Assembly: GCA_016722575.1 (NCBI GenBank)
Contig: JADKIY010000001.1
Span: forward strand, 704,810 to 768,809
Origin: Elusimicrobiota bacterium
GTDB taxonomy: Bacteria; Elusimicrobiota; Elusimicrobia; FEN-1173
Direction of reading: 5' to 3'
Length of the DNA stretch: 64,000 nt
Below are positions 1-36,987 of this stretch, piece by piece (position 1 is the stretch's first letter; each line of letters opens with the position of its first letter). The translations under genes and the position numbers were made by a program. The notes under the pieces are model-generated. The model did no database searches and had not been told where the DNA came from. It saw only the letters and a list, made by a program, of their open reading frames with translations.

Positions 1-951
1 CACCGGGTGTTTTCCGAATTGCCGGACTTTTTTTCGCCCGGCGACGCCCTGGTGTTGAACGACGCCCGGGTGATTCCCGCCCGGTTGACCGCCCGAAAAC
101 CCACGGGCGGGCGCGTCGCCCTCCTGCTCCTCAAACGGTTTCCACCCGAGGCGGGCGGGGAACGCTGGACCTCCCTGGCGACCCCGAAACCGAAACCCGG
201 CCTTCGTCTCGTCTTGTCGGACGGAACCGCCGCGACCGTTCTGGGCCCCGCCCCCGACGGGGAGCACGAAATCCTCTTCGAGCGATCCATCGCCGGGGAT
301 TTGGACCGGCTGGGGCGTCCGCCGCTCCCACCCTACATCGCCGCGCCGGCTTCGGCCGAAACGGATCAACGGGACCGGGAGTACTATCAAACCGTGTATG
401 CCGCCGACGGGCCCCTTCCCGACGACGGCCGGGCCCACGCTCCCGGCGCCGTCGCGGCCCCCACGGCCGGGCTCCACTTCACGCCGGCGCTCTTGGACGC
501 TCTGCGGGCCCGGGGCGTCCAGGTCCTGTTCCTGACCCTGCGCGTCGGGTGGGGGACTTTCCGACCCATCGCGGCGGACTTCCGGGACCATCGCATGCTG
601 CCCGAAGAATTCTATTTGCCGGCGTCCACCGCCGATGCCGTCAACGAAACCCGACGGCGCGGCGCGGCCGTCTGGGCCTGCGGCACGACCGCGGTCCGCG
701 TGTTGGAATCCCAAGCCGACGAACAGGGACGCCTTCGGGCGGGCGCCGGCGAAACGGGGCTCTACATCGTTCCCGGCCATCGTTTCCGTATCGTCGACCG
801 GTTGATCACGAATTTCCACATGCCCCGCCACACGCCGCTTCTGCTGGCCGCCGCCTTCGCGGGCGTGGATCTCCTTCGGGATTCCTACCGCCAAGCCGTC
901 GATCGCCGTTACCGTTTCATGTCCTACGGCGATGCCATGGCGATTCTTTAG
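1..951 (+). CDS. queA: S-adenosylmethionine:tRNA ribosyltransferase-isomerase QueA, 5'-truncated at window edge
   Basis: Motif PGDALVLNDARVIPARL matches the QueA region about 50 aa into the protein, and the reading frame is open from nt 1. The C-terminal part is QueA-like throughout. The GTG at 7 used in the track is not a real start. Confidence 0.85.
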   Translation, partial: HRVFSELPDFFSPGDALVLNDARVIPARLTARKPTGGRVALLLLKRFPPEAGGERWTSLATPKPKPGLRLVLSDGTAATVLGPAPDGEHEILFERSIAGDLDRLGRPPLPPYIAAPASAETDQRDREYYQTVYAADGPLPDDGRAHAPGAVAAPTAGLHFTPALLDALRARGVQVLFLTLRVGWGTFRPIAADFRDHRMLPEEFYLPASTADAVNETRRRGAAVWACGTTAVRVLESQADEQGRLRAGAGETGLYIVPGHRFRIVDRLITNFHMPRHTPLLLAAAFAGVDLLRDSYRQAVDRRYRFMSYGDAMAIL

Positions 952-962
952 TCCCGCATTCG

Positions 963-982
963 TTTACACAAGATTTACAATT
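963..982 (+). promoter_or_regulatory. Tandem TTTACA direct repeat (TTTACAcaagaTTTACAA) upstream of giant gene 1, followed about 30 nt later by TATCAT-TAGG
   Basis: Near-identical arrangement upstream of giant gene 2: TTTACAaaacaTTTACAA at 60032-60050, then about 30 nt, then TATACT-AAGG. The repeat spacing (11 nt) is the same in both. Confidence 0.35.
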
Positions 983-1215
983 CCCCAAGGGCGCGTTAAC
1001 CTCCCGAAATTATCATTAGGTTGTTCCTAAGATGTTTGCCGATTCCCCGGGAGGGACGCCTTGCACCGATTAATTGCCTCCGATTGCCAATGCGACGCCT
1101 GCCGCCAACGGCGCGTCGCCTATCTGTGGGTTCGCGGCGGCCGACGGGACCACCGGTCTCGGCCCCCCCACACCGAAACCTCGAAACGACCCCCCGAAAA
1201 AACCAAATTGCGCCA

Positions 1216-4200
1216 ATGGTGGAGCAACCTTTTCCGATGCGGATAAACGGCCGATCCTTTTCGACCGCGTTGCGCCGCGGCGCCCGCCCCGTTCTGGGCG
1301 GCGCCCTGGCCGCCGTTTATTTCCTGGTCAACGTTCCGGGGGTATACGCCGTCGAATCCAGCTTTTGGTCGGACCGGCGGGAGCGCGCCGGACGACGGCG
1401 GTCGCCGGACAATCCAACCCTTTTAGCGCAATTGCCGTCGGGGGCTCGTGCGCCGTTGGGGGACGCGGTCCTTCCCCCGGTCGCCGGTCGATTGTCCGAG
1501 GAGTCCCTGGGCGGCGCCGCCCGCCTTCCGGCCAAGACGCCCGCCTCCCCCGCCCTGCAACGGGCGTTCGGCTGGTTGCCCGCCGTGGTCGCCCCCTACG
1601 GGGACGTTCGCGACGTTTATTTGTCGCCCCGCCCCGGCGCGCCCACCATCATCCACCTTCAAGACGCCCACGAAATCGCCGAAGCCCAAAGGAACCTCGC
1701 GGGCCTGACCACGGCCCTGAAATCCGCCCGGGGGCTCTCCCTGGTGGGCCTGGAAGGCGCGGTGGGCGCCTTCGCCCTGGATCCCTATCGCCGTTATCCC
1801 AACGCCGACATCACCCGGGCCTTGGCGGACACCTTTTTGGGATTGGGCTATTTGACCGGCCCCGAAGCGGCCGCCGTGACCGGCGACAAGCCGCCGCTCC
1901 TCTGGGGCGTGGAAGACGCCGGCCTTTACCGGGACAACATTTCCGCCTTCGAAAATTCCGAACGAACCCGGGCTCGCGTTCAAGCCTTGGCCGCGAAATT
2001 GTCGGCCGCCGCCGACGAGGCTCGCGACCGTTATTACTCCCCCGCCCTTCGGGCGCTGGACGACCACCGCCGGGCCTACCACGAGCGGAAAGAAGGTTTG
2101 GCCGCTTACGCCGCGTATCTGTGGGGTCTGCGCAAAGGATCGCGGACCGAATTCGAGAACACGCGCCTGTTGCGGGAAGCCCTGCAATGGGAGGAGCGCC
2201 TCGACTTCGTCCAAGTCGAGAACGAGCGCCGGGCCCTGGTGGAGGGTCTTTCGCGCCGTTTGCCCGAGGACGCCCTGGCCGGACTGGTCCGGGAAAGTCT
2301 GGATTACCGGGCGGGCCGCCTCTCCTACGGGGACTACCACCGGTATCTCCGCCGTCTCTGCGCGGACCACGGGTTGGGGTTGGAGCGTTATCCTCAATTA
2401 AGCGCTTACGTGTCTTACGTCTTGTTGGCCGAGCGGATCGACCGGGACGGTCTTCTTCAAGAGCTGGTCGCCCTGGAAAAATCGGCGGAATCCGCCCTGG
2501 CGGTTTCCCCGGAGGAAAAGGCCCTGGTCTCCGTGCGCCGCGGTCTGACTCTGCTGGACAAATTAACCACCCACGGATTGACCCCGGCCGAGTGGCAGTC
2601 CTATCTGGTCGAAAGGCCCCGGTTGTTGGCCCTTCCCAAAACCCTTTCGACCCTGGTTCCCGGACGGATCGCCGGCGCCGACGCCCTGACGCCGGAAACC
2701 CTCGATTCCTTCGAGCGTTTTTGCTCCCGGGCCCTGGACCGCAACGGCGCGCTGATCAAAAACCTGTTGGAAAAAATGCGGGCCGAGGGCGCCTCGGCCG
2801 CCGTCCTCGTGGCGGGGGGCTTCCACACGGCGGGGCTGGCCCAGCTTTGCCGTCAACAGGGTCTATCCTACGCCGTCGTTTCCCCCCGACTGGCCAAAGT
2901 GCCCGCCGAGACCCGGCCCCTGGACGTGTTCGCCCGTTCGCCGCTCCCCTTGGAGAAAATCCTCGCGGGCGACGTCATCCATCTGGCCTACCCCCGGCTC
3001 GGCCAGGCCGCCGGCGAAGGATTGGCGGCCCAGGGCGCCGCCGCGGCCCGCCAGCAGACGGCCCAAATCCTCTGGGCGTCCTTTCAGGAATTTCTGGGGG
3101 GCCTCGCCACCAATTTTTCCGAAGGCGACCGCGACCGATTCGCCGAATTTGCCCGCCAATTTACCGCCGTGAGCGATTTAAGTGCCGACGTGTTGGAGTT
3201 GGGCGGGGGGATACGCGCTCTCGCCGTTCGGGTCACGGTTTCCAATGGGGACAAGAAGGAATTGGCGCTCCTGAGCGCCCCGGACGGCCGGGAAAACGTC
3301 TACGACCGCTTCGGCGCGGAGCCGGCCTTCGCGGGGCGGGTGGAATTGCCCTCGGGTCCCCTGGCCCTTCGGGTGTATGCGTTGAGCGATGTGTCCGGCC
3401 CGGGCCTGATCGGCCGGGTGGTTTGGTGGGGGGACCGCACACGGGGGTATTGGTCGGCCCACGCTCGGTCGTTGATCCAGCAATTGAATTTCCGGCTCGC
3501 CGGTTTGTCGGCCCCCAAAAAAGCCGTCGTTGAAACGGAGCTCTCCCTGGAGGAAGCCCACGGCCGGGCCATCGCTGAAGTTTCGGCCCGGTTGGGTCTG
3601 CGGACCCGGGAACTGGAACCCATCGCCCACCACATGGTCCGGGTTCGGGACCTCGCCGATCATCTGGCGCGGTCCCTCGGAACGAACGCGGAGGACATCG
3701 CGCTTCTCCGTTTGGCGGCGAGCGCCCACGACATCGGCAAATTCCACGAGGACTGCGTGGAGCACGTGATCACCCCCGATATCTTTCCCAAGGATTCCCC
3801 GGCGTTCCGGGCCCTGGCCGAACACGAACAATTGGTTTTCGACGTTCTGGGCCGGCAAAAACTCGTCCTGTCCGCGGAAGTGGCGATGATCCTCCGCGCC
3901 CACAGCGCCCTCGGGGCCGGGGCGAAGGAATCGCTGGACGCGGTGCCGGGCTTGACGGAGCGGCACGTCCGGCTGGCGTTGATTTTGTCGTTGGCCGACG
4001 TTTCCGACGGGTACCGCGACATGCACCGGCCGTACATTCAAGCCTTGGTGCAAAAAAGCGGTTTCCCGACGCTGGATCAACTTCGCCGCGAATTCCTGAA
4101 ATACGCCGCCAAAGCGGCCGGCAGTTCCTACGCCGGGGCCCTGCCCGACGCGGAGTCGGTGTTCGCCCGGGCGGCGGCGGAGCCCTGGTTCGCCGCCGCC

Positions 4201-7200
4201 ACGGAACGCACGTTGATCGAACACGTCGCCGGTTTGGTGGAAGCCGCCACGGCGGGCGATCCCGACGCGGAAAAAGCCCGGCGGCTTTCCCGGGAGATTT
4301 CATCCCACCGAATTCCCGCGTTGGCCACCCCGCCCGACCGGTGGTGGTCGGCGTTGGTCGAATCCCTTTTTGTTCGAGGCGCGACGGGCGATCAACGGGC
4401 GGCCGTCCTGGAGTCGCTGTTGACCACGCTCCAAACCGAAACGGCGGCGGGCCGCATCGATGGCGGTTTGGGGCTCGCGGGTCTGACCGCGGGCCTCCTT
4501 CCCGCCGGGCGGTCCCGTCCGGCCGCGGCCCGGGAAATTCTTTTGGCGCGGGAATGGACCTCCGAGAAAGCGTTGGCCAAGGACATCGACGCGACGGCCC
4601 AAGCCGTTCGCGAGCTCGCCGCGCAATACCCCGCGGTGGCCCCGGCGGCGTTGTCCTCGTTGACCAGTTACGCCCTGGGGGAAACCGAAGGCCACGGCGC
4701 CTGGGACGGTTCACCGGCCCGGCTGGAACTTTCCCGCCGAGGGAACACCCTGCGTCTCCGCATTGAAAACGACGGGGGGTATCCGCTTCCCAATCGGGCG
4801 CCCAAGAACATCCGCAACCGTTCCTTCACTCCCGCGACCGCGGAGCCGCTGATCTACAGTTCCCGGGGCGTGGAGTCCGGGTCGGGCGCCGGGACCGCCT
4901 ACATCGCCGTTTACTTCCATCAAATCTATCAAGCGGGTCTTCCGGACCAACTCACTTCCCGGGCCCGATTGGCCTGGACCCAGCGGGCCCTGGGCGAAAA
5001 TCGGTACCGCATCGCCCTGACGGTCCACCTTCCCTTGACGTCGGCGGCAACGATTCGGGGCGGCGCCATCCCCGCCGTCGCCGCTTTTTGGGAGCCCAAG
5101 TTCGTCTCTCTCCTGGGCGAACGTTGGGGCCGCTACTTTTATCGCGCGGTGGCCGGGCCCACCCTGGAAGACCTGTTCGGCGGGCTCCGCAACGCCGAAT
5201 CCATCAACAGCGCGCTTCTCTTTCCGCTCCTCGTTGGTTTCTTGATGAATCTCGGGGGCGATCCGGTCCTGGGCGCCTTCGTTCCCGCCTTTATCCTGTT
5301 CTTTAACCGCCTGCTGTTCGTGGCGCGCCATCCCGAAGGCCAGCGAACCGAAGCCGGGTTCGTCGCCGCGCTGGGAGGCGCCGGGGCTTTTGCCGTGGCC
5401 TGGATGGGCGCCTTTTCTCCGGTGGCGGTGGCTCTCGGTTTCCTCGCGGGATGGTCCTTCCACGTCGCGACCAACGCCGTGTTCAATTTGCCCGTCCTTT
5501 TCCAAGGGAAGTCGAAGGAACCGTCGGCGCCCGCGGCCCCGGCCCGAACAAAAATTGGATTGGTCCTCCTGATGATGGGGACCCTTTTCCTCTCGCCCAT
5601 GTACCGGGGCGGGGGGAGCGCCCTGATCGACGCGGCGGCCGACCGCTGGGCCGGGTTGGGCATCGCCGCGATCGGCCTGTTGATGTTGGCGACGTCGGGC
5701 AACCCCTTCGCGAACGCCAAGCGGGGAATCGACCGGATTTTGACCTCGTCCTTTGCCCAGGGCCTTTCCCGGCGCTGGACGGGACTGGTGCGCTGGATCG
5801 GCCGGAACAAAAGCCCCCTGTTGGCCGCGGGCTTCGCCGCCGCCCTGGGGTCCCTTTTCGGGCCCTCCAACCCCGAATTGATGATCGCGGCGGCCGCGGC
5901 CACCGGGACCCCCCTGGTGCGCCGGTCGGAACGCCGGGATCTGAACATCGCCTCGGTGAGCGTCGAGTTGGCCCCGCCCCACGGGGAGGTCAACCGGCAA
6001 ATCCGGGGTCTGATGGCTTTCGGTCACTCGATCCTTCGCCGCAACGCGGCGGGCGGGTGGAGCGCGGAGAACCACCGGGGCGCCCTGTCCCTGACGACCC
6101 GCGACGGGGAGGACCTGTCCCGGGACGGCGTTCTCAACGATTTCGAAATTCACCTGGTGGGCGACGGGGCGTTCCGTTACCTGCACGTTTGGCCTTGGGG
6201 CGCCCAGGAGGGCCACGGCGGGGGTTTAAGCACCGTCGGAACCCTGAACCCCGTCAAACGCGTCTTCATCGCCCGGGGGTTGTGGGAATCCGACCGGGAA
6301 CGGGCCTTGACCGTCCTGAAGCACGAAGCCACCGAAGTTAATTTGTGGTGGGAGCATTCGCTCAAGTTGGGTGACGAAAAACAAATCGTCAGCGTGGACC
6401 GAAAAGCCGAGGCGCTGGCCGCCGTCGCGGCCTTTCGCGGGCGCCCGCGCAAAAAAGCGGACGCGTTGGTCGCGGCCGACGCCAAATTGCCGACCATCCG
6501 CGAATGGATTCGGGCCAACGCCCTGGGGGCCGTGGTGGCCCTCACCAACCGGTTTCACAACATGGCGAACCGCCGCTACCGGACCGAACACCCCATGGAT
6601 TTCATTCCCCTTCCCAACACCCTGAGCGGTTCGGTCGCCATGGTGAGCTGGGAGCACCGGGACTTTTTCAAGAGGGGCGGCTTGGGCGACGCCATCAGTG
6701 AAGCGTCCTTCAATCTGGCCAAGCTGGGCCAGGACGTGGACCTTTACATGCCCATGCACAAGGAAATGGAAAACAAGGTCCCCTGGGTCGACACCCACCT
6801 CACCGTGCCGGTGGCGACCGCGGGGGAACGGGTGGTCTTCCATCTGTTCCGAACCGAGATCGACGTGCCGACCCCGGGCGCCGGCCGCTTAACGGTGTAC
6901 GCGCTGAAAGACGTCACCCCGCGGTCCGGCGACACCGAACGCTGGCGGCTCTTCCAGTACGGGTACAACCCCCCCAACGACCTGCGGTATTACGATTACC
7001 CGCTCAAGGAATCCGCCTTGGGAGCCAAAGCGGTGGTGGAGGCCATGAAATTGGTGAGCGGTGACCGGCGGGGCCGCGTTCGCTACCGGGCCGTCAACGC
7101 CCACGACTGGCAAGCCGCTTTGGTGCCCGTGCTCATGAAAGGGGACGCCTCTTTCGCCGGCGTCGGTCGCATTTTGACCGTTCACAACGGGGCGTACATG

Positions 7201-10200
7201 GGGAATTTCCGCCTTAAAAACGACGACGGGACCGACAGCTACAACCAGGAATTCCTCCGGGGGTTGGGCCTTCCCGCGGGCTACGATCGTTTCGGTCCCG
7301 GCGACCCCATTGAATTTCACGGCCAGATCGTTCTTCAGAAGGCGGCGCTGCTGGCCGCCCACAAGATCAACCCCGTCAGTCCCCAATACCGCAACGAATT
7401 GCTGAGCCCCGATGACTACGTGTTGCCCGGAAACACCCGGGACATGGCCGGGGTTTACCGCGCCCGTCAAGCCGATCTGGTCGGCGTGATGAACGGGTTG
7501 GACGACGACATCTGGAACCCCGAGCGGGACCCCGCCATCGCCGACGCGCCCTACGCCTACACCCCCTTCGTCGCCAGGGACGTGCGCGAGAAAAAACCCG
7601 CCAACAAGTCGAATTTTCAAAAAGCCCTGGGGTTGACCGTGGATCGCGATGCGCCGATGCTCTACACGTGCGCCCGCCTGTCGGAGCAAAAAGGGTTCGA
7701 TTTCGTGGCGGACGCCATGGAAGGCTTGTTGACGGAATTTCCCAAAGCGCAGTTCGTCCTCATGGGGGACAGCGACAACTCGGAAATGGGCAACGACCTC
7801 GCCCGGCGATTCACCGATTTCATGACACGCTACCCGGGCCGGGTTTGGTTCGGGCCTTTCGGGGGCCGCGGGGGGTGGGAACATTACATGGGGGCCGCGG
7901 CCGATTTCGTTTTGTCGCCCTCCCGCTTTGAGCCCTCCGGATTGACCGAGAAAAAGGGAATGCGTTTGGGCGCCGTCCCCATCGTCCGGGCCGTGGGGGG
8001 CCTGCAGGACACCGTCGTCGATCCGCGGGAGGACGCCGACAACGCCAACGGCTTCAAATTCATCGAGCCCACGGGCGCCGCTTTCGGCGAAGCCGCCCGC
8101 CGGGCTCTGCGGGCCTACGAGGCCGGCCACGGTCAACGTTTGGGCGACGAGCCCAACATCGATCTGCTCCAGCAAAACGCCATGCGCACGCCGAAATCCT
8201 GGGAGGACGTGGCGCGGGAGTATTTGGGACTCTATTCGGCCGCCCGGGACGCCGCCCACGACGAATCGACCGCCGAAGTGGCCGCGCGCCGCCACGCCGT
8301 TCCCCCCGCCGCTCCGCTGATCGGCCATTTGCCCGCGGGCGTCGACTTGGGCGCGATTCGCCTGGAACGGGGGGACGAAGTCCGCGGGGCCCTGGCCGAC
8401 CTCGAGGAATGGATGGCCACGGTCGTCAGCGGCCCGCCGCCGACGCTGGCCGGTTCCCGCCGGGGCGAGACGATCCCCCAAACGTTGGATATGCTCCGCC
8501 AGGAACTCGGGGCTTTGTCGTCCGACGCGGACGCCGGCCTTTTCGACGCCGACGCGTTCCAGCGCGAATCGGCCGGGCGGGTCCTGGGGTTCGGTTTCGC
8601 CGAAACCAAAACCGCCACCGGCCGGGCGCGTTTGGGATTGAGCGATGAATTTTTCAACCCCGACTCCGTTCTTTATCCCCACCGTCGGGAGGCCCTCTTT
8701 CACGAAGCGTACCACGTCGTCCTGGGGGTGGCGGACAACTCGACGATCCATCGCGACGCTCTGCGGATTCAGGCGGCCTTGTTTTGGGGCGTGCCGGTGG
8801 AAGAAGCCTACGCCCTTTCCCTGGAGCAATTGGAGGCTCATCCCAAGAACGCCCTCGGTCGAGCGCTTCGGGTGCGGCGCCTCCTCCGGGATTTCCGCGG
8901 CGAAGACGTCAACGGTTTGGCGGACCTGCTTGGGGAAAAACTCGAAAACGGCCAGCTGATTCCTTTTCTGACCGAGGCCGACGACGCGCTCAACGCCCCC
9001 CTGGCCCTGTCCCCGACCGCGTTGGAGCGTCGAACCTGGGAGCGGGTGGACCTCATGCGCCGCCTCGAAGGCCAACCGCCCAGGGGCCGCGGCGACCTGG
9101 ACCCCCGCTTCCTCGAAGCCCGGCGCGCCGAAGAGGATTGGTCCAAACCCCTCATCGAATCGGGTCCCGTGGAAGCCCCGCAACCTCTGCTGAAAGCCAT
9201 CGCTCTTTTAACGACCGAGCAGGAGGATCGCCTCCTGAACGAGTTGAGCGCCGCCGTCGCCCAGGATTCCGCTTTGGCCGACCGGCCCATCGTGGACGAC
9301 ATTTTTTTAATGACGGGACGGATCCCCAAGGGGTGGGCGAAGCTGCACGGAATCGCTTATCAGCGCGTTTACCATCTTTCCGCCGAAGGCCGGAAGGTTT
9401 GGGCGGGAGGGCTCGGGCCCGTGCAGGTGTTCCACAGCGACGCCGAACGGCAAATCACCCGGGATTCCGCATTCGACGTGGTGGACATCGAGCCCGATTA
9501 CACCCACCGTCGAACGGCCGAAGGCATGGTGCCCGCCGAGCGCGCGCGGCCCTCCACCCCGTTGAAGCCCTCCTTGGAGCCGCCCTTTGACCTGGAAGTG
9601 AAGTTCCAGGGCCGGCCCGTCAAAATTCGCGTTCGGCCCATGCGGGGCCCCGAAGGCAATCCCGTCTACCTGTTCCGGGACAATCCCGACGGGGACGCCC
9701 ATTTCACCAAACAGCTTTACGACTATCGGCCCAGCGGCGACAACCCGGCCTCCTGGGAGGAATTCACGGCGTTTTTCGGGGTGGCCACGCTCGCGGTCAT
9801 CGGCCGGTTGGAGGAAAATCGCTCCAAGGCTCTGGGCGCCCAATGGCGTCCGCCCGTGCTGCACGGCAACGACGCGCAAACGGCCATGGCCATCGTTCTC
9901 CTGGCCGAAATCGTCCGGGGGGGAAATCCCCGGTCCGAGGAATTGGTGCAGTCCGTTCCGTTCCTGGCGAAATTGGCTCCCCTGGCGGCCCGTACTTTTA
10001 AAACGCATACCTACGGGAACCGCCAGGGCTACACCTGGGGGAGGCCCGAGGATCACTACGGGGTGGCCTCCTATCTGAGCGGAATTCCCGAATGGGACCA
10101 CCAGCGATTGAATTTTTATTTTGCGCGCCGAGGGCCCGAAGCCCACGGGTATCCGGACGTCACCGCGGCGGCCATCGCCGCCACCCCGGGTCACGCCCAG

Positions 10201-13200
10201 GCGGTGGCCCGCAAGCACGGGTGGGACGTCATGCGGAAATACGACGATCCCCAATCGGTGGTGGGCATCACCAACGGCGCCAACCTGAAGTGGTCGGCGG
10301 GGCTTTTTTGGGATTATTTGGACGAGGTGGGGCACGAAAACGCCGACCGCCTGCGGCCCACCGCGGAACAGGTCCGGGACGCCAAACGGCTGGCGAAGGA
10401 GCGATTTTTCACGGATTTGTTGGTCCATCCGCAGCATGTGGAAGAGCAATTCTACCGGCGGTTTCGATTCATTTTGAACGATCCGGCCAAACGGGGGGAG
10501 CCGACCCCCGCCGTGGACCCCGCCCTGTTGAGCCAGCCGACGGTGGGTTTTGTGGGACGGCTGGTGAATGAAAAATTCAACATGAACCGCGGCTGGACCA
10601 CCCGAAACATTGAAGAACTCGTCAAAGCCGGCTACAACGTCGTGTTGTTCGCTCCGATTCAGCAGAAAAGCGACCCCACCAGCCCCAGCGCCGCCATGGC
10701 CCGGACCCTGGAGGCCCTTTCCGGAAACTTGGATCGGGAGTGGCGGCCGGGACACGGCCGGCTGATTTACATCGATTCCCGGGATTCGGAACTGAAAAAA
10801 TCCGCCCTGGCCTCTTTGGATATCCTCGTCCTCGATTCGGACAAGGACACGGAAGCCAACGGGTACACGGAAGTCGCGGCCTCCGCCTCCGGGGCCCTCG
10901 TTCTGTCGCCGCCCTTTCACAACGGCGAAGGGTTGATTCGCGGCCAAGGAATGCCCATCGATTTCTCGCAACCCGGCCACGGAAACACCCTGATCCCCGA
11001 CAATCAAAAGCCGGAATCGTACGTGGCGGTCTTGAAGAAGGCCCTGGAGGTCTACCAACAGCGTCCCATGGATTTCGCCGCCCACCAGGCGACCTCGGTC
11101 CGTCTAAGCCGCGTGCTGGAAGCGCGTCTCACCGCGGCGGCTTCCCTGCGGGATTTCAACTTGAGCTACTCCCTCCCCCTGGGGGTCGCGACGGATCCGT
11201 TGTGGTTCGGCGGGGTGAGCGTGGCCGAAAATCAACCCGCGAACCTGGAAGCGTGGGTGCGCGTGCGCCCGGGCGTGGATGCCACCCACTTGGACGTCCG
11301 GGCCCGTCTGGGCGAAGTCCCCGCGGGCCCCGCCTGGGGCGGGGAATGGTCCAACGGCCGGGAAATCCGGCTGGAGCCGGCGGGCCCCGCGGTCACGGCC
11401 GCGGACGGTACCGTGGCCCTGCGTTTTGCGAAATCGGTGGAACTTCCCCGCGGCGCCTACGAATTCGTCGTGGAGTCCCGGGATCGCCGGGAACCCCGGT
11501 ATTGGGTCCTTCAGGACGGCATTCGCTGGGGGCAAAACAACCGTTTGCTGGTGGGAACCCCGGCCCCGACCGGCGCTCCCGCGGGTCTTCTGCCGCTTTG
11601 GCGGCCCGTCATTCAGAATTTCCGGTTTGCCGGCTGGTCCGACCGAACCACCGTCCGGGTCCTGGGCGTGGTCGAAGAACTTTTCCTGATGGGCGCGGTC
11701 ACGCTCCTGGGCCGGGTTTTGGAAATGACGTTGGGTCTTCCCAGCGGCGTGAGCTTGTTGCTTTCCGCCGGGACGGCGGTGGCTCTCTTCCCCCTGGGTC
11801 ACGTGGGCGGCGTTCACTTCTTTGAACCCAGCGGGCGCCTGAAACTTTATCAAGCCACGGCGCGGGATTTAACGAAGCTCACGATCCTGGGGGCCGGACT
11901 GCGCACCGTCCACCTCGGTTTGGCCCTGGGTCTGCCCTGGTTGCTCACGGCCCTGGCCGGCGCTCCGATTTTGGGCCCGCCGGGCGCGTGGATCGAATTG
12001 GCCGCGCAACTCCTGCCCTTTTTGGCCGTGCCCCTCCTCCACGGCCGCTACAACGCCAACCCGCCCCGGGGATGGCCGCTGGGGATCCTCTCCTTTCAGC
12101 ACGCTCTTCTGGCCATCCGCTGGGGCACGACGGTCTCGGCCGGATTCTTTGAGCGCTTCGTTCCCCGTCAAGGCGTGCCCGTGGGGGACGGGTACATTTC
12201 AAATCCTCGCCGGACGGCGCTCATCGACCGGACGGTCGCGGCCCTGGCCGGCATGGCCGACGCCCGACTCAACGGCCTCAACCCCCTTTCCCTTAAGGGA
12301 ATCCTCGACATTGTTTTGAAAAACGTGGAGCAACACGGCGTTCCGGGGGCGGACGCCCAGGCCGCCGCGCGGATCGACGGCGGGGATTTTCTGTTGGAAA
12401 TTCGAAACGAAACCATCGCCCCGTTGTCGCCGGAATTGAACGGTGAATTTTCCGTCGGCCGGAGCAACCCCCGCGTGGCGGTCGAAAACCGGTCCCCCGG
12501 AACGGGGTATGGCATCGGGGTGACCCGGTTGCCGGGTTTGGTCCGGGGCTTGTACGACGTCGGCGCCGCCGATTTCGCCGAGCGGGCCCGATGGTCCTGG
12601 ACCACGGACGCCGCGACCCGGGAAGTCGTTTTTCAATTGCGCGCCCCCCTTCCGCCCGCGCCCGCGGCGGGGAAAGCCCACGAATTTGTTTCGGAATGGG
12701 AAATTCCGGGCGCCGTTCCCGAAGCGCCGGCCCCGGTCCCGATCTGGGGGTTGGTCGGCCGTCGGTTCGTGGCCCTGACGGCCTCCGTGGCTCTCTTTAT
12801 GAGCGGATTGGTTTCGGATTCTTCTCGGGCCTGGTCCCATCCGGTTTCCCCGGCGACCCGCGAAGCGTCGGCCGTTCCCGCCGGCTCCGATCAACCGTCC
12901 GCCTTGCTTTCCGCGGGGGCGATGGTCGTTCCCCTGGCCTCCCGCCGTCGGCGCAACGATTTTTGGCATCAAGTCGAAGCCGGGAAACACCCGGGTTGGC
13001 GGCTTCTGCGCGTCCCGGGGGCGAACGGCGAAACCATCGAAGCCGCGGTGAAGGAATCCGGCCAGGGCCCCCTGGTGGTCTGGAATTACGGCGGCGGGGC
13101 GGGTCCCGTTTTGAATCGGCAAGCCGATTGGTTCGCCAACCGGCCCGGGGTGGTCGTTCGCCGGCGGGACGCCGACGCCCACGTCCTGGTGGGTCAAACC

Positions 13201-16200
13201 GCCGGGGACACCGTCACGGTTTTGGAACAAATTCGCTCCCGCGGCGGTCCGGATTGGTCGGACGGCGGCGCCCTCGTCGTGGGGCATTCCTTGGGCGCCC
13301 ACGTCGCCACCACCGTGGCTCTGCGCCTTCAAGCGATGTCGCCGGGGGCCGTGCGGGGGGTCGTTCTTCTCAATCCGCCGGTGCCCAATGGCCTTTGGTA
13401 TTCCATGTTGATCGGCTGGCTCTCCTTCTTGAAGGGCGTCAGCGAGACTTTGGATTCCTGGATGGAGGCCGCGCGCTTCTCCTCCGCCTCCCGTCGGTCC
13501 CTTCGCCAACAGGAATCCCAGTGGTGGGGCCATTTCATCGAAAACTGGATCCCCTCGGCGGACGACGCTCGAACGACGGCCGACGCCCCGCCGGCCGTCC
13601 CCTGGGCCCTCTTCAACGGGTGGGACCACTTGCTGTCCGAGTCCCGGGCCCTGGGGAATTATTTGGAGACGACGCTGGCGGAATGCTTGGCCGAACTTTC
13701 GCGACTGCCCGCTCCGTTGCTGGTGGTCGGATCCCCCCACGATCCCCTGTGGGGGGAATTCGCGGCTTTTTATCGCGCGCTCCACCTTCGCGAGGTCGGC
13801 GAATCCGACGTTCTTCCGGAAACGGCCGCCCGGGCGCCCGCCCGCTTGTACGTCGAATTGTCGAACGGCGGCCAGGACGTATTGGCGGAGCACTCGCCCC
13901 ACATGTCGGCCCGCGCCGATCGGCTCAACGCGATTCTGGAGTCCTTTGCCCGGGCGGCCGACGGCCGCGGCCGCGCGGTGGGAGCCATCGGCCACCGCGT
14001 GGAGTTGGATTCGATTCGCTGGGGTCCCGACGGCTCCCTGATTTTCGCCCTTCAGCGGCCCGGCGGCTTCCCCCGGGACCTGCCCATCCTCTCGGCGACG
14101 CCGACGCGTTTTTCCGTTAAAGAGTCGATCGGCCGCCTGCGCCTTCGGGGCGGGGACCGCGGGACCCGATCCTCCGCGGACCCCCTGCGGCCCTTGGCGG
14201 ATCTTTTGGACCAACGGAGAATGTCGGCGCCCGCGGTCTACCGATTCGAGGATTCCCCCTTTAACCTTCGGGGGCTGGCTTTCGCCGGCACGGGGCTTCA
14301 CAACGCCGCCCTGGCGATTCACCAGGACCTGGCCCAATCCCAAGCGATCCGCGATCTGGCCATCCTCCACGAATTCCTCGAATACCTCTCCGCCAAAGGC
14401 TTCCTGGTCTACCGCTACGCGGCCGAAGAAGGGCTTCTTCGGATGAGTTTGAAAGTCCCGGGGACCTGGAGCGACTTCCAACGCCGGTGGGAGATCGAAC
14501 TGCCGCCGGCCGCCGCCGCTCTGGCCGCCCGGGGGGCGGAACGGGCCCACTACTTCCACCGCGCCCTGACCGCGGCCGCCTTGAACGACCTGGATGGGGA
14601 ATTGACCCGGACCATCCGGGAATCGGTGCGCCGACGGTTGCGGGTGGTGTCCGCGGCGAACGTCGGCGGTCGGGATAGAACCCTTCAGCCCGTTGTTCGA
14701 CGCCTGCGCCGCAACATGGAATCCGAGCATTTCATACCGCTCCTGGCCGAGTGGCTCCTCCACACGGGGATCCCCCGGAAGGACGGGTCCTTCAATTTGT
14801 TGCGCATGGAATTCCGGGCCTTTCCCAGCGGCGTGGTGTTGGAACGGCACGGCACGCTGGAGGAGCTCGACCTGAAAAGCCGCGGTTTTCAAACCGTTCG
14901 GTCCCTCCGTTCCGGGGACGTGGTCGTCCTTCCCTATTTGTTGAGCCAATTGATCGACGGTTACCGCCAACGCGTGGCCGAAACCGGGAAAGAACCGGAC
15001 GACGTTCATCCCAACGCCCTGCTGATGGATTTCCTCACCGCTCTTCCCGCCGGGGTGGTGCTGGCCTCGGTGGAGATGCCCTCGACCCTCGGGCAGTGGG
15101 GCCTGGAGGGGGCGCCCCTCGAGGGCTGGCTTCGCAATCACGCGCTGTGGGACGTGCCGCTCTGGCGGTTCATCCACGACACGGGTTGGTTCGACAACGT
15201 CTTGCCCCGGGCCGTGCCCCTCGACGCCCTGGACGGCGACCGGTTGAATCTGGACAACGGGACGTTCCTCACGCTCCAGGTCAAGCGGGATTCCCGGCTT
15301 CCGTCCGGCGGCCGGGCGGCGACCGGCGCCGTGTTGTCGCTGGCGTCCCCGAAGGGCGGGGACGGCGCTTTGTCCTCCCTCCTGACGCGCCGCTGGACGG
15401 AAAACGTTCTTCGACGGTGGGGGTTCCAACCGTCCGATCGATCCGTTCGCCTCGTCGCCGCCCTGGGCGTGGCCTGGTGGTACGAATTTCCGCGGACCCT
15501 CGCGGCGACCCGATTGGCCGATTTCGTTTACGAACACCCGGGGCCCCGGTGGATTCGTGTCGCCGGTTTGGCGGCGGTTTACGCGACGATGGGGTGGGCC
15601 TTCCTGGAAACCCTTCAATTCATGACCGGTCAAGCGAACCTCGTGCGTTTCGTCGCGGCCACGGCGGCGGCCCTGTTGGCCAATCCCCTGGGTCATTTCG
15701 CGTGGAATCTCGTTTTCGTTTGGACGGGGTGGGAACTGACCCGCGGTTCCGCCGTCCCCGCCCTCCCCATCCGCGCGGCCGGCCGTTCCCGGAGCGGATG
15801 GCGGGTGAAAACGGATTTGAGCGAACTGGAATTCCGTAACCGGAACACCGCGCCCGAAACCTGGACGCCCATTCCCCTTAAAGCCGAAGACAACGGAAGC
15901 TCCGCCCTCCCCTTCCTTCGACGCCCCTACGAACTTTTCCCCCGGTCCCCCCGCCGGGAAGGACCCGACGCCCCGAGCACTTCGGAAGTGGCCTACCTCC
16001 GGGTCGTCAAGGCCCTGGAATCCCTCGGCGCCTTGACGCCTCGATTGCTTTCGTACGACCCCGCCGCCCGGTTCCAGACCCCGGGCAAATCGGAACTTTT
16101 CGGACTGCGGGCGTTCTCCCATTGGATGCAAAAAAGCGACGGGGACTTGGTGGGCACGCCCGAGGGGTTGTCCTTCGTCGTCCTTCCCGCCGAGCTCTTT

Positions 16201-19200
16201 TCGGACCCCGCCGTCGCCCCGGCCGATCGCCGGGAGTATCTCGGAACGGCCGTCCTGATCGAGGCCATAAAAATTTTGCGTCTGGCCGGTCGCCTGACCC
16301 TGACCCTGGAGCGGGACGAACGGGGACCTTGGTTGTTGCTCTCGGTAACGAACGCCCAGGGGCGGGTGGAAACTTCGCGCTTCCTGGTGTACGGCGAGGT
16401 GGCCCGCATCCTAAGCCACCACCGGGATTTCCACCATTTGGCGCGGGCCCTCGTCGCCTATTGGATCCCGACCGCCGAAAAACGATTGAACGATTTTCTG
16501 GTGGCCCGGGACCTTCGCGGCTACGTGGAGATTTCGCCGGCGGCCGCGACCGCCGCCGCCCGCCCGCCGGCCCCGTGGGGCCGGGTCGCGGCGGCGCTTT
16601 TGGTCGGCGCGGCTCTGTCCTTCGGTCTGCCCGGAACGGATTTCATTTCCACGGCCGCCGCGGCGACCTGGACCCCCGCTTCCCCCGTCCGGTGGTTGGA
16701 TCCGTCCTTCGTGGCGACCGCCCTGACCTTGATTTTGCTCGCCGCGGCGGCGACGGTGGAGCCGCTTCGGGCCGGACTCCGCCGGTGGCCGGACCGCCTG
16801 GCGGCCGCCAAGGATTCGATTTTGATGATGGCCACGAGCCGCGGTCCCCCGGGCGGCCGCGGTCGCGGCGGGAATGGAAAACTCGGCGGAGAAGGCCCCC
16901 GCGTACCGGCCCGTGAAAAGGCCGAATTGCTTTTCAAGTTCAATGGGAAAATCGCCCTGGCGCGGAACGCCGGGGATTTTGAAACCCTCCGGGAAATATC
17001 GAATTGGGTGAAAGGCCTATCGCTTCGCCACGATCCCGACCTGGAGGCCGCCGTCCAACGATTGATCGCCGTCCACGACAGCCGCCGGGATTATCACTGG
17101 CGGCGGATGATCGGCAACGAAGAGCCCGCCGCGACGATCCAAGACGAATTGAAGTCCCTTTTGTTGAGTCGCCTGGGTTGGTCGCCCTCCCGACCGGCCC
17201 CCGCCGAAACGGAACGCCGGGCGACCGTTCTGTCGGCGGAAATTTTCAGCCGCGATCCTCGCAACAGCCGGGAATTGGATCAATGGATCGGCGAGGCCGT
17301 AAGATCATTGAGTCGGGACCTCCCCGCCAACGGCGGTTTGGAGCCGGCGATCCCCGTCGTTCCTTCCCCGTGGACGGGCGTGGCCACCGAAATAAAATCC
17401 GCGTCGGGCGAATTGCTGGCCACCATCCAAAAGGACGAGAACCGAAACGGATGGGTTCGGTTCTACGATGCGTCGGGTCGTCTTCGCCGGATGGAAAGCC
17501 GGGATCCGGCCCGTCCCGTCGTGGTTGTGAGGGAAGTCGGCCCCGGGGGCCGGCTCGACACCGTGATCGGCGGGCCGCGCTCGGCGGGGGGCGCTCCCCT
17601 GTCCCCCGTGTCCTTGGAGACGGACCGGTTGATCGAGGCCTTGGCGAATTACCACCGGTGGATCGCGGACTACGCGTCCTCCTTGCGGCGTCAAGGGGTT
17701 TCCGTGGAAGAAGCGACCGAGGCCGTGGAGTCCGCCCTTCGCGCGGGTCGCTACCGTTTGGCCGAACTGGTCGTGCGGAGCTGGCTGGACCTCCCGGGCA
17801 TGTACCGCCGGGCGGTGAACGGCGAAGAATCCTACCCGAACGAATTTCAAAGCCCACGGTTTCAGGGGACTTTTGCCGATTTTGTCAGAACGGTCGGGGA
17901 ACGGGGGGCGGTCCACGGCCTGAACAGCGCCACCTTGAAGGAGAATTCGGACGGCTCCCATTATTTTGTCCACGAGTTGATGCCGTTTACCTTGCTGGAA
18001 AACAGCATCAATTATCACTTTGCGAACATGCGCAATGACCTCAGCCCGGCGGGGGAAAACGAGCGGCCCGTCATCCTCTTCTTCGACATTGAGAAGTTGC
18101 CGCCCTTGTCCATGAAAAACCCGCTGGAAGTCAAATTCCGCGAAATGGTGGAAGCGCCCTTGGTCGCCCTGCGGCCCGAGAGTCGGCGGGTCGCGGAATC
18201 CCTCGTTGGCCCCCTCGAAGGATCGGGGGCGACGGCCGACGTTCGCCGGGCGCTGGACGACGCCGCCGGGTGGGCGCCGACTCCGGGGGCGGGACGAGCC
18301 CAACGGGGATACTCCCTGCCAATCGTTTTGGTGGGTTTATCGTTGGGGACTTTGGTGGCCCTTTCCGTGATTCCGTGGATTGGAATTTTCCCGTCTCTGG
18401 CGGCGGGCCTCCTCTCCGCGATCGCCGTTGCCTTGGCGGCGGAGAATTTGTTGATCCTCCCCGGCATCCGGTACGGACCTTCCCGGGCCGCTTTCGAGAC
18501 CCTGCGCCGGGCGGTGGCGGCGACCCAAACCATTCCCGAGGACGACCGGGCCCTGGCCGACCTTAAGAAATCGTTTACGGAGTTTAAGGCCGCGATGAAG
18601 GAATCGGCGGGCGGGATGCCCGACGCCTCCTCCTACCGCGCCTTCATGTGGGCGTTTTCCGACGGTTTGGACGCCGTGGTTCGGGAAGTGTTCCGGCGCG
18701 CGGCCCGGAAGCACCGCCTCTTGAACCGCACGGCCCTGATGGCCCACGGCAGTTACGGGTCCCGTCGGCCGGGCCTGATATCGGACGTCGATTTGCACCT
18801 TCTGCTTCCGAACGACTTGGCCTACCCGGCCCCGGACAACGAGACGGGCGCCGCCGCCGAGGCCCTGTATTACGGATTGGAAAAAGTCCTGAGCGCCCAG
18901 GACCCCAAGCCGCTGAAGGATTATCAGCACGCCGGCGACGTTGAGCGCGCCATGGCCTTTTGGGAACCCAGGTCCCATGAGATGGGGAGTCTCTACACGG
19001 GCGTGGACGCTCTGCGGGTCTACGGGTTGAACGCGCGCCCGGTGGCCGGCAACGCCCGGTTGTTCGAGGAGGGCGTCCGGCCGGGCTACCGGCGCCTGCT
19101 TTCCCGAAATCGGCGCGAAATCCTGCGCGGGGTGATCTTGGAGAGGGAGGCCCAATTTGAAAGGGCCGATTCCAGCTTGCTGCGCCCGGATTTCAAGGCC

Positions 19201-21474: not shown

Positions 21475-21512
21475 TCCGGCCCGCCGTTGATTTTTTGTAT
21501 CGTGTCGGTCCC

Positions 21513-22679
21513 ATGACCGATCGAGCCCCCGGGTTTTTCGATCTGGAAACCACCGACGGCGCCGCCCGGGCCGGCCGCTTGACGCTGGCCCACGCGGCGG
21601 TGGAAACCCCGATCTTCATGCCGGTGGGAACCCAGGCCACGGTCAAAACCCTCTCCGCCGACGACCTCGAAACCCTGGGCTATTCCTTTATCCTCTCCAA
21701 CACCTACCACCTTTGGCTTCGTCCGGGGATCGACCTTCTGGAAAAATCCGGGGGGCTCCATTCCTTTATGTCCTGGAAGGGCGCGATCCTGACGGATTCC
21801 GGGGGATTCCAGGTGTTCTCCCTGGCCAACCGGCGCGACGTCTCGGAAGAGGGGGTCGCTTTTTCCTCCCACGTGGACGGCGCCCGCCACCGGTTGACGC
21901 CGGAAACCGTGGTGGACGCCCAGCTCCGGATGGGGGTGGACGTGGCCATGTGCCTGGACGAATGCCCGCCTTACCCCGTGGCCGAAGCCGACGCCCGGGA
22001 CATGATGGAACGCACCTTGCGTTGGACCGCCCGGGCCCGGGACCGCTGGGCGGCCGACGAGCGCCGGACAAAAACCCTCCTTTTTCCCATCGTTCAAGGG
22101 GCGACCTTCCCGGCCCTCCGCGCCGAAAGCGCGCGCCGTACCGTGGAAATGAATTTTCCGGGCTACGCCGTGGGCGGGTTGTCCGTGGGGGAACCCCGGG
22201 CGCTGTTGGGGGAAATGATCGAGGCGAGCGTCCGGGAGCTGCCGGCCGAAAAACCGCGCTATTTGATGGGGGTGGGCCGCCCCGAGGACGTCTTGACCGC
22301 CGTGGAGCGGGGCGTCGACATGTTCGATTGCGTCTGGCCCACGCGCAACGCCCGGAACGGCCAGGTCATGACCTGGGACGGGTCTTACAACGTTCGCGTG
22401 GCGGCCCTCCGGGAGGACGGCCGTCCCCTGGAGGCGAATTGCGCCTGCCCGGTCTGCCGGCGCTACTCCCGCCGGTACCTCGCCCATCTCTTCCGGGCGG
22501 GGGAAACCACGGCCCTCCGGCTCTTAACTTTACACAACTTGGCCTTTATGTTAGACTTCCTCCGTCAAATCCGACGGGCCATCGTCCGTCGAGAATTCAC
22601 CGAATTTAAACGCGCGTTTTTGGAGCGTCAATCCCGGGCCGATGGTGCGCCCGCCGGAAACTCCCAGGGGGTCTTGTGA
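21513..22679 (+). CDS. tgt: Queuine tRNA-ribosyltransferase
   Basis: Full-length similarity to Tgt (LETPIFMPVGTQATVK, DSGGFQ, zinc-binding CxCxxC ... H region). ATG at 21513 is the first in-frame start after the giant gene stop. Confidence 0.9.
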   Translation: MTDRAPGFFDLETTDGAARAGRLTLAHAAVETPIFMPVGTQATVKTLSADDLETLGYSFILSNTYHLWLRPGIDLLEKSGGLHSFMSWKGAILTDSGGFQVFSLANRRDVSEEGVAFSSHVDGARHRLTPETVVDAQLRMGVDVAMCLDECPPYPVAEADARDMMERTLRWTARARDRWAADERRTKTLLFPIVQGATFPALRAESARRTVEMNFPGYAVGGLSVGEPRALLGEMIEASVRELPAEKPRYLMGVGRPEDVLTAVERGVDMFDCVWPTRNARNGQVMTWDGSYNVRVAALREDGRPLEANCACPVCRRYSRRYLAHLFRAGETTALRLLTLHNLAFMLDFLRQIRRAIVRREFTEFKRAFLERQSRADGAPAGNSQGVL

Positions 22680-26112: not shown

Positions 26113-26874
26113 GTGTTGCTCCTCGGTCACAGACGACCGGTATGCTCCCTCGTCGCGCCTTGCCCAGGGCCAAAATCCTCTCGGCAAAACGCTCAATTTA
26201 TTTTGACTCAAGCCCCAAACGAATCCCGCTCCCGTCGCGACCGGTTTTGGCCCTGGGTCGTCTCCTGGTTGGGGTGGCTGATTCTCCAATTCATTGGACG
26301 CACCTCCCGAATGGTGGTCCGTTGGTCCCCCGCCGCCCAATCGCTTCGAGAAAGTTCCCGCCCGATGATTTTTGCCTTCTGGCATCGTTACCAGTTGCTG
26401 ATGGCCTGGGAACACCGGGGCCGGGGCGTGACCGTGCTGGTCAGCCGCAGCCGGGACGGGGAATTCATCGCCGGGGTTCTGGAGCGCCTGGGATATCGGA
26501 CGGCGCGGGGGTCTTCCAGCCGGGGCGGGCCCGCGGCGTTTATGGAATTGCTGGACGTCGTGAACGCGGGCGGCCGGGTGGCCTTCACCCCCGACGGACC
26601 CCGGGGGCCCGCGCGGTCCATTCAGCCGGGCGTGTTGGCCCTGGCGGCCAAAACCGGGGTTCCCATCGTCCCCGTGGCCTGGGCCGGGACGCCGGTCAAA
26701 ACCCTTTCCAGCTGGGACCGATTCATGATCCCCCTGCCTTTCGGGCGGTTCCACGTGGTTTTCGGCGATCCCCTGATCGTGACGGCGGCCGATGGTGCGG
26801 CGGAGGAAAATTTGCGTCGGGCTCTAAATCAAGCCGAAGCCGACGCGGGTGAAGAACGGGAGACCGCGTGTTGA
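26113..26874 (+). CDS. DUF374-family protein (lysophospholipid-acyltransferase-like), of the kind often found next to Kdo transferase
   Basis: Conserved block FAFWHRYQLL...SRSRDGEF...GYRTARGSSSRGG...VAFTPDGPRGP typical of DUF374. Lies immediately upstream of and overlapping waaA. The start is uncertain and may be downstream of 26113. Confidence 0.65.
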   Translation: MLLLGHRRPVCSLVAPCPGPKSSRQNAQFILTQAPNESRSRRDRFWPWVVSWLGWLILQFIGRTSRMVVRWSPAAQSLRESSRPMIFAFWHRYQLLMAWEHRGRGVTVLVSRSRDGEFIAGVLERLGYRTARGSSSRGGPAAFMELLDVVNAGGRVAFTPDGPRGPARSIQPGVLALAAKTGVPIVPVAWAGTPVKTLSSWDRFMIPLPFGRFHVVFGDPLIVTAADGAAEENLRRALNQAEADAGEERETAC

Positions 26875-32865: not shown

Positions 32866-32870
32866 TCCCC

Positions 32871-35778: not shown

Positions 35779-35819
35779 GACGGCGCCAATGAACCCGTCG
35801 GCCCCGAATGATATGATCC

Positions 35820-36971: not shown

Positions 36972-36987
36972 ACAACGGAGTACGCCC

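Follow-up and report, generated by a model that had tools for sequence, protein, structure and literature searches.

Results

A giant gene with an embedded GT5 domain

We analysed 64 kb of forward-strand DNA (positions 704,810 to 768,809 of contig JADKIY010000001.1, assembly GCA_016722575.1; here called the window) from an uncultured Elusimicrobiota metagenome-assembled genome (MAG) of activated-sludge (wastewater) type. The window holds a giant open reading frame (ORF), and within it a domain of glycosyltransferase family 5 (GT5), the family of the bacterial glycogen synthase GlgA. The features of the giant ORF are collected in Table 1, where the ORF is counted from its first TTG; the true start is likely an ATG at nt 1090 or 1216, shortly 5' of the first transmembrane helix. 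The genome is about 66% GC, and GC content at third codon positions (GC3) is about 0.8 over the entire ORF. Because this value is held along the full length, we regard the giant ORF as genuinely coding.

The original prediction had placed a complete glycogen/starch-synthase domain at nt 6560-8240, in the middle of the giant protein. Hidden Markov model (HMM) searches agreed with this extent to within about 70 nt (Table 1) and located the domain at 27-35% of the protein length instead of its middle. The NCBIfam glgA model TIGR02095 matched the giant protein with E=1.3e-82, and since the match spans model positions 3-476 of 477 the domain is complete. PF08323 was matched over aa 1872-2131 (E=7.8e-37; 127.7 bits against a cut-off of 22.7). 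In a sequence search of the PDB, E. coli glycogen synthase (2qzs, E=7.6e-43) was the best match of the domain, followed by the A. tumefaciens glycogen synthase and by plant and cyanobacterial starch synthases.

The domain was aligned with E. coli GlgA (from NC_000913) and with stand-alone GlgAs, and residue roles were taken from a published table (PMC6210743) and a review (PMC11046441). The three motifs quoted in the original prediction (FKRGGLGDA, NAHDWQAALVP and the C-terminal motif) all lie in frame 1 of the + strand, inside the one giant ORF. Residues K1884, G1887, D2029, H2055 and N2158 are equivalent to K15, G18, D137, H161 and N246 of E. coli, the last of these within GVMNGLD; R2219, K2224, E2304 and T2308 are equivalent to R300, K305, E377 and T382. 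Judged by these alignments, the domain retains all residues assigned to phosphate binding, glucose binding and catalysis, including the key Lys (K1884) and Glu (E2304) that had been expected to be kept. The test set for the prediction was loss of the GT5 HMM hit or of the Glu in RFEPxGL; both the HMM matches and E2304 are in place. Near identity to the GlgA consensus holds for the C-terminal motif and does not extend to the domain as a whole, which is 30-37% identical to the stand-alone GlgAs found and carries about 60 extra loop residues.

An AlphaFold2 model of the domain, built from a 97-sequence alignment, had a mean predicted local distance difference test score (pLDDT) of 91.7 and a predicted template-modelling score (pTM) of 0.92. 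It shows a closed and well-formed GT-B fold with two Rossmann-like halves. When the model was compared with the PDB by Foldseek, the 17 best matches were all glycogen or starch synthases, with 1rzu, 3cop and 2qzs at the top (E down to 4.5e-36; target-normalised template-modelling (TM) scores 0.83-0.87). The suggestion that the domain may be catalytically competent thus seems fair, given the residues kept, the confident predicted fold and the selection described next (dN/dS 0.09). The original prediction overlooked how atypical the domain is as a GlgA, the presence of a second GT5-like domain and the published GT5 domains in giant proteins.

Relatives and selection

The GT5 domain has 88% identity to P0001 and P0002, fragments in GenBank that come from Elusimicrobiota MAGs (on contigs L020 and L023). 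P0001 extends upstream into sequence specific to the giant, and because it spans the upstream junction the fusion is present in an independent assembly. The ratio of nonsynonymous to synonymous substitution rates (dN/dS, Nei-Gojobori method) of the GT5 part was 0.087-0.092 against the L020 and L023 fragments. For the neighbouring genes secD, tgt, secF and kdtA, compared with the related lineage L024, it was 0.05-0.095, SecD being 96% identical with a dN/dS of 0.05. Synonymous rates were similar across comparisons (dS 0.45-0.9). This fits the view that L020 and L024 are one lineage, but is no proof of it. The GT5 module is among the constrained parts of the giant, and purifying selection on it is as strong as on housekeeping genes.

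L024 is a Logan contig from a related population; it carries a predicted gene, 6,628 aa or longer, that extends past one end of the contig and has tgt-yajC-secD-secF and lipopolysaccharide (LPS) genes after it. Over its C-terminal third (window 15751-21474) the giant has changed far more rapidly than the neighbouring genes: identity to L024 1-8422 is 61% and 40%, dN/dS is 0.29-0.52, and an insertion or deletion of about 1,000 aa ahead of the tail separates the two giants.

A metagenome scan with a two-sequence alignment found nothing, and a second scan gave L021 and L022 (JGI Ga0268298), each with a single frame open from end to end (16.9 and 21.7 kb) and collinear with the window protein. Identity to the window protein is 53-61% over aa 2420-3897 and about 31% over the first GT5 domain. 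In both, and in the protein P0198 (4,332 aa), the GT5 domain stands at the same relative position, between the same flanking modules. P0198 matched PF08323 with E=2.5e-48 and its catalytic residues are kept. Upstream of GT5, P0198 (aa ~1355-1403) and L022 (~nt 5630-5860, frame-2 aa 1877-1952) have a UDP-glucose-pyrophosphorylase-like (UDPGP-like) domain with NVDNLGA and KGG motifs, at a PF01704 score barely over the gathering score. The window protein is without this domain and has HD-containing sequence in that place.

In a crude neighbour-joining tree, in which long-branch effects are possible, the window domain fell outside all sampled stand-alone GlgAs and beside the L021 and L022 domains. 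Loss of the DNAERF motif and an insertion after YxG are derived features common to the window domain and P0198. In a scan of genome contigs all matches were stand-alone glgA genes, 28-35% identical. That a housekeeping glgA was captured recently is unlikely in view of the shared derived features, the placement of the domain by L021 and L022 in the tree, and the lack of any GlgA above about 37% identity.

A second GT5-like domain

The giant carries a second, very divergent GT5-like domain downstream of the first (Table 1). Scanned alone, it scored 25.4 bits with PF08323 against a cut-off of 22.7. An hhalign comparison of a six-sequence profile of this domain with a profile of 97 GlgAs gave a probability of 98.3% (E=1.4e-14), and its 437 aligned columns begin at the KTGGL loop and reach as far as the C-terminal helix; an earlier comparison with the GlgA profile had given E=2.7e-4 in the same register. 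In place of KTGGL the domain has VWAGGLGPV, with Trp at the K15 position in all six family sequences, and it keeps equivalents of D137, H161, R300, K305 and E377. Its counterparts in L019, L021 and L022 show 70-73% identity, far above the figure of only about 31% for the canonical GT5 domain. An AlphaFold2 model from a two-sequence alignment reached a pLDDT of 39 and was not used. We also considered this region, with its GITNG and TEANGY motifs, as a GT35 phosphorylase lacking pyridoxal phosphate, and rejected the idea since E. coli GlgP showed no real match in hhalign.

The short JGI contig L019, in which the second domain is 70% identical, has unrelated ends (1-135 and 2158-2228), and a TGA interrupts its frame at a point past which similarity to the giant seems to go on. 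The contig may be chimeric, or the gene may be split.

After the second domain comes a conserved segment with a G-x-YEF motif (aa 3400-3540). The segment matched no Pfam model, and a profile of the second domain plus the segment matched no PDB sequence. By eye, we would guess at a carbohydrate-binding module.

Membrane clusters and other modules of the giant protein

Hydropathy scans predicted about 20 hydrophobic helices in 7-8 clusters (aa 90-111, 1394-1618, 3545-3660, ~3916, ~4830-4904, 5189-5246, 5763-5807 and 6457-6493). The GT5 domain lies in a long soluble stretch, aa ~1620-3545, flanked by two membrane clusters.

Pfam and NCBIfam scans were run on the whole protein and on tiles covering the sequence outside the GT5 segment and the transmembrane clusters. 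They identified an HD-type phosphohydrolase, a weakly matched alpha/beta-hydrolase and a GlnD-like nucleotidyltransferase with two ACT-like segments (Table 1); PDB sequence searches with the remainder of the giant gave only a weak HD match. No GH13 (glycoside hydrolase family 13) or other transglycosylase domain and no recognisable exporter domain was detected in the giant by the Pfam and NCBIfam scans. Internal repeats, and repeated HExxE/H peptidase-like or GHKL-like modules, were considered and are unsupported, a self-BLASTP giving nothing and Pfam no match.

The linker between the two GT5-type domains contains HEAYH, an HExxH sequence (window 8701-8715), in a region common to P0263, a protein described below. 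This linker matched no metalloprotease HMM; that the giant might process itself through HEAYH is only a thought.

A head-cargo-tail family

A HMMER search with aa 150-1349 of the giant retrieved 7,250 representatives of 50% identity clusters at E≤1e-3, and the 150 best of these were used in local searches for head and tail domains. The head, of about 500 aa, directly follows the N-terminal transmembrane helix. The tail, of about 300 aa, was always 0-4 residues from the C-terminus where it was found among the best 150. Nearly all of these 150 members are long (0.4-7.6 thousand amino acids, kaa), and proteins with both head and tail measure 1.7-6.5 kaa. Just behind the first helix the family consensus reads FW..RR.A..R, a conserved stretch rich in Arg. 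Neither head nor tail matched a Pfam or NCBIfam model, although 5 of 11 heads weakly matched ChaN/Tiki (best E=1.2e-3); when the head was the query of a word-indexed protein search, no more than 7 matches were obtained, all of them short fragments.

Between head and tail the cargo differs almost every time. In 15 full-length members it comprised, mostly in one member each, pyruvate phosphate dikinase, phosphoenolpyruvate-utilizer, low-molecular-weight phosphatase, AAA, HATPase_c, GT2, GT21, GT1, Rce1-like, CofD, VWA, transglutaminase, carbohydrate phosphorylase, GH26, HD and ACT domains. Among the best 150 members, P0198 alone carries GT5 cargo, and P0263 (2,551 aa) combines head, second GT5-like domain and tail without the first GT5 domain. 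By these sequence comparisons the window giant is a member of a large, uncurated, modular head-cargo-tail family, in which GT5 is the cargo of a small sub-lineage only. In the accessible text of the two giant-protein preprints (West-Roberts et al. 2023, bioRxiv 10.1101/2023.11.21.568195; 2026, bioRxiv 10.64898/2026.06.07.730766) there is no mention of the head or tail domains.

Table 1. Features of the giant ORF in window coordinates; residue numbers refer to its translation
Feature	nt	aa	Strand	Basis or remark
Giant ORF	1021-21474		+	6,817 codons from first TTG; ORF list and translation
Family N-terminal head domain	1543-3090	175-690	+	N-terminal in 150/150 best matches
HD/HDIG-type phosphohydrolase domain (PF01966)	3625-4002	869-994	+	Pfam
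About 6-7 hydrophobic helices upstream of GT5 domain	5200-5874		+	Hydropathy scans
GT5 (GlgA-type) glycosyltransferase domain	6634-8241	1872-2407	+	HMM-defined
FKRGGLGDA, KxGGL donor-phosphate loop (K1884 = E. coli K15)	6667-6693		+	Alignments
NAHDWQAALVP (D2029 = E. coli D137)	7096-7128		+	Alignments
TVHN (H2055 = E. coli H161)	7177-7188		+	Alignments
ARLSEQKG (R2219, K2224 = E. coli R300, K305; phosphate ligands)	7672-7695		+	Alignments; roles from PMC6210743
FGGRGGWEH, aligned with E. coli IGYHEAFSH	7858-7884		+	Alignments; roles from PMC6210743
C-terminal motif through GGLQDTV (E2304 = catalytic E377; T2308 = T382)	7915-8016		+	Alignments
Second, very divergent GT5-like domain	9367-11220	2783-3400	+	PF08323 and hhalign
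Conserved segment with G-x-YEF motif after second domain	11218-11640		+	Kept in L021, L022, P0198 and P0263
Second helix cluster, downstream of second GT5-like domain	11653-12000		+	Hydropathy scans
Alpha/beta-hydrolase, weak match, GHSLG nucleophile elbow	~13280-13295	near 4088	+	Pfam/NCBIfam scans
GlnD-like nucleotidyltransferase and two ACT-like segments	18493-20280	~5825-6420	+	TIGR01693 E=5e-12; PF08335; weak ACT
Family C-terminal tail domain	20548-21471	6510-6817	+	27/150 best matches

Genomic neighbourhood

The 20-kb giant gene is wedged between queA and tgt (window 951-1021 and 21474-22679) of the conserved queA-tgt-yajC-secDF cluster. Nine of the neighbouring proteins are identical to GenBank entries (MBL0349377.1 and neighbours, locus tags IPP68_*) labelled "MAG: Elusimicrobia bacterium", which lie on a contig of 851 kb. 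Besides queA, tgt, secD and secF, the window contains LPS-core glycosyltransferase genes, an O-antigen-ligase-like gene, pyrG, a secretion ATPase gene, mdh, coaX, polA and fpg. A long LPS-core/O-antigen cluster lies 3' of secDF (window 26868-39296) and comprises a Kdo transferase, two heptosyltransferase-like GT9 enzymes, several GT4 and GT2 enzymes, a lipid A acyltransferase and a Wzy_C ligase. Two minus-strand ORFs are without a Pfam match. The one of 142 aa (window 60701-61129) has coding-like GC3, and the one of 946 aa (61154-63994) failed the GC3/GC2 coding filter.

Discussion

Interpretation of the GT5 domain

We interpret nt 6634-8241 as an intact GT5 retaining glucosyltransferase module of a multi-transmembrane giant protein, and most likely as a membrane-tethered, nucleoside diphosphate (NDP)-glucose-dependent alpha-glucan synthase. 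From its sequence and predicted structure we would give this reading a probability of about 0.6. The domain would elongate an alpha-1,4-glucan from NDP-glucose. It would probably do so on the cytoplasmic side of the membrane, because the substrates of the GT5, HD, GlnD-like and second GT5-like modules are cytoplasmic; a cytoplasmic head fits as well, since an Arg-rich stretch follows the first helix. The GT5 domain, the second GT5-like domain and the conserved segment behind it may act as one cassette, and in the relatives P0198 and L022 a putative sugar-nucleotide-forming domain is fused nearby.

A number of observations weigh against this interpretation. With TIGR02095 the domain scores 278 bits, short of the curated cut-off of 328.45, every glgA equivalog model is far under threshold, and the match to PF00534 (aa 2209-2364) is weak, at 23.5 against a gathering score of 26.4. 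At 105 alignment columns at least 85% of 94 stand-alone GlgAs agree; the domain keeps 71 of these columns and differs at 34. The DN of DNAERF is deleted, at a site that forms the sole low-confidence loop of the AlphaFold2 model, and the invariant Arg of that motif is Glu; T16 is replaced by Arg and Q383 by Glu, and two conserved Tyr residues are changed. The adenine contacts of the E. coli enzyme, Y355 (stacking), H356 and S360, are Gly, Arg and Glu in the window domain. Both the Lys and some 60 residues, among them the TVHN...EFxGQ segment, are missing from the first GT5 domain of L021 and L022; activity is therefore probably not maintained across the whole family. Seven or eight helices precede the GT5 domain, six or seven of them in the cluster, so topology is not settled by counting. 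Finally, our gene survey agreed with the original prediction that the window has no stand-alone glgA, glgB or glgC, and glgP and glgX are likewise missing elsewhere in the 64 kb, so no glgC, glgB or glgX lies nearby; such an absence carries little weight for a multi-Mb genome.

The altered base pocket bears on the choice of donor. Since the adenine contacts are replaced, ADP-glucose cannot be assumed to be the donor of the window domain. Unlike the window domain, P0198 and L022 still have an aromatic side chain where E. coli has Y355. UDP, ADP and dual donor specificity are all known among prokaryotic GT5 enzymes (PMC11046441). UDP-glucose appears as plausible a donor as ADP-glucose here, because the adenine contacts are not conserved and two relatives carry a UDPGP-like domain.

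The domain could also be an active GT5-fold enzyme that serves something other than glycogen storage: it might make another or an exported alpha-glucan, handed over through the transmembrane clusters in the manner of fungal Ags1, or it might act on a lipid, protein or envelope-polymer acceptor. Such a role would suit the atypical character of the domain, which is under the glgA cut-off, lacks DNAERF, has a third of the GlgA-conserved positions changed and an altered base pocket, and falls outside all sampled stand-alone GlgAs in the crude tree. Its setting between two multi-helix membrane clusters, followed by a better-conserved GT5-like domain with Lys replaced by Trp, points the same way. 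The gene also adjoins secDF and the LPS-core/O-antigen cluster, but this proximity is probably incidental, since the gene sits inside the housekeeping queA-tgt-secDF cluster. All glucose- and phosphate-contact residues are kept, however, the nearest structures are all alpha-1,4-glucan synthases, and neither a GH13/transglycosylase nor a recognisable exporter domain was detected. We therefore regard a product or acceptor of this other kind as rather unlikely, although it is the most serious competitor to an alpha-glucan synthase.

A pseudoenzyme without turnover, which would bind glucan or nucleotide sugar, or serve in regulation or as a scaffold, is less probable still. The orthologous domains of L021 and L022 lack K15 and the approximately 60 residues that include H161, the second GT5-like domain of the same protein is also without the Lys, and divergent domains are frequent in giant proteins. 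In the window lineage, on the other hand, every catalytic residue is intact, purifying selection equals that on housekeeping genes, and the model is a well-formed closed GT-B fold, all of which makes loss of turnover improbable there. A fusion artefact, by which an assembly or frameshift error in a long-read MAG joined a stand-alone glgA to its neighbours, deserves mention because the source is a MAG contig and the related L019 has an in-frame stop and odd ends. The frame is open for 20.4 kb with uniform GC3, and independent assemblies agree with it: P0001 at the upstream junction, L024 with at least 6,628 aa and the same synteny, and P0198, L021 and L022 with the same flanking modules. We consider an artefact very improbable indeed.

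A wider proposal, which concerns the whole family, is more tentative. GT5 would be one interchangeable cargo of a very large inner-membrane superfamily (at least 7,250 clusters) with a ChaN/Tiki-like head and often a tail, which would tether arbitrary metabolic enzymes to the membrane, among them glycogen synthase, UDP-glucose pyrophosphorylase, pyruvate phosphate dikinase, phosphorylase, GT2 and GH26. The GT5 domain, the GT5-like domain and the C-terminal segment would then form a membrane-anchored glucan factory, with a donor or product unlike that of classical ADP-glucose glycogen synthesis. On the sequence data we hold this possible, with the balance of likelihood somewhat against it.

Significance

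The GT5 domain offers a practical handle on giant bacterial proteins, the functions of which are almost entirely unknown: it is excisable, confidently folded, carries the full catalytic set and has a simple assay. It also calls for caution in metabolic inference. Pipelines based on K00703 or PF08323 would score an embedded, atypical domain of this kind as a classical GlgA, and "starch/glycogen synthase present" has been scored that way for Elusimicrobia (bioRxiv 10.1101/765248). The head-cargo-tail family may matter more than the GT5 finding, being the more novel lead and lacking a curated model. Its swappable cargo suggests that membrane tethering of metabolic enzymes within one polypeptide is widespread beyond Omnitrophota.

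Comparison with known systems

The window domain shares the GT-B fold with bacterial GlgA (E. coli 2QZS/3COP and A. tumefaciens 1RZU; TM 0.83-0.87), as well as the KxGGL, HDW, VHN, NG, RLxxQKG, RFEPxGL and GGLxDTV motifs and a full-length match to the glgA HMM. GlgA is a soluble protein of about 480 aa, whereas the window domain is residues 1872-2407 of a 6,817-aa membrane protein. It further differs from GlgA in its identity of 30-37%, in lacking DNAERF and the stacking Tyr355, and in having no gene context of the glgBXCAP type. The domain is thus a divergent member of GT5: it has the fold, motifs and Pfam match of the family, falls short of the NCBIfam naming threshold and is without the ADP-specific adenine pocket.

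In eukaryotes, fungal alpha-1,3-glucan synthases of the Ags1/Mok1 type combine GT5 with a GH13 domain outside the cell and, at the C-terminus, a membrane domain that resembles an exporter. They resemble the window giant in that GT5 is embedded in a large multi-transmembrane protein, and they differ from it in their GH13 domain, none being detected in the window giant. Plant starch synthases III and IV are alike in having GT5 fused to non-catalytic targeting or binding regions, and starch synthase IV (6gne) is among the best structural matches of the window domain. They differ in being soluble or granule-bound, about 1,000 aa long and extended by carbohydrate-binding module family 53 (CBM53) or coiled-coil regions. 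Unlike the window domain, plant starch synthases keep the adenine-stacking aromatic residue (table in PMC6210743).

The closest architectural parallel is provided by the giant proteins of Omnitrophota, here drawn from the accessible text of the two preprints cited above. GT5 glycogen-synthase-like enzymes are reported there as the most prevalent glycosyltransferases of the "Archaeovorin" giants, and glycosyltransferases as a whole rank second in frequency among the domain classes of these proteins (West-Roberts et al. 2023, bioRxiv 10.1101/2023.11.21.568195). PF08323 occurs in 153 of 779 Pfam-positive Omnitrophota proteins of at least 10 kaa, and is placed in a "sugar metabolism" module and a "multi-enzyme metabolic cluster" class by the 2026 preprint, which considers membrane-anchored, cytoplasmic-side cargo as one reading (bioRxiv 10.64898/2026.06.07.730766). 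Together with PF00534 it is among the commonest domain types in Omnitrophota giants, co-occurring with HD and kinase-like modules.

The window giant resembles these proteins, as far as they are described there, in its very long ORF, its many transmembrane helices and its unrelated enzyme domains, PF08323 and PF00534 among them. Both the Omnitrophota giants and the head-cargo-tail family have pyruvate phosphate dikinase as cargo. The likeness described here is one of architecture and shared Pfam domains. The window giant belongs to another phylum, Elusimicrobiota, and at 6.8 kaa is shorter than the thresholds of at least 10 kaa (2026) and more than 30 kaa (2023) used for the Omnitrophota proteins. 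Most giants described by West-Roberts et al. contain a divergent SecA DEAD-helicase domain. In the window giant no SecA_DEAD (PF07517) match was obtained at E≤0.01 with the whole protein or at E≤1 in the tiles, which cover the sequence outside the GT5 segment and transmembrane clusters; HEAT, TPR and dockerin domains were likewise not detected in these Pfam scans. A GT5 domain inside a giant transmembrane protein has thus already been described in Omnitrophota, to judge from the accessible text, and the window protein is a fresh example in a different phylum. If the superfamily proposal is true, the Omnitrophota giants could, by analogy, be the extreme end of a broader cross-phylum design.

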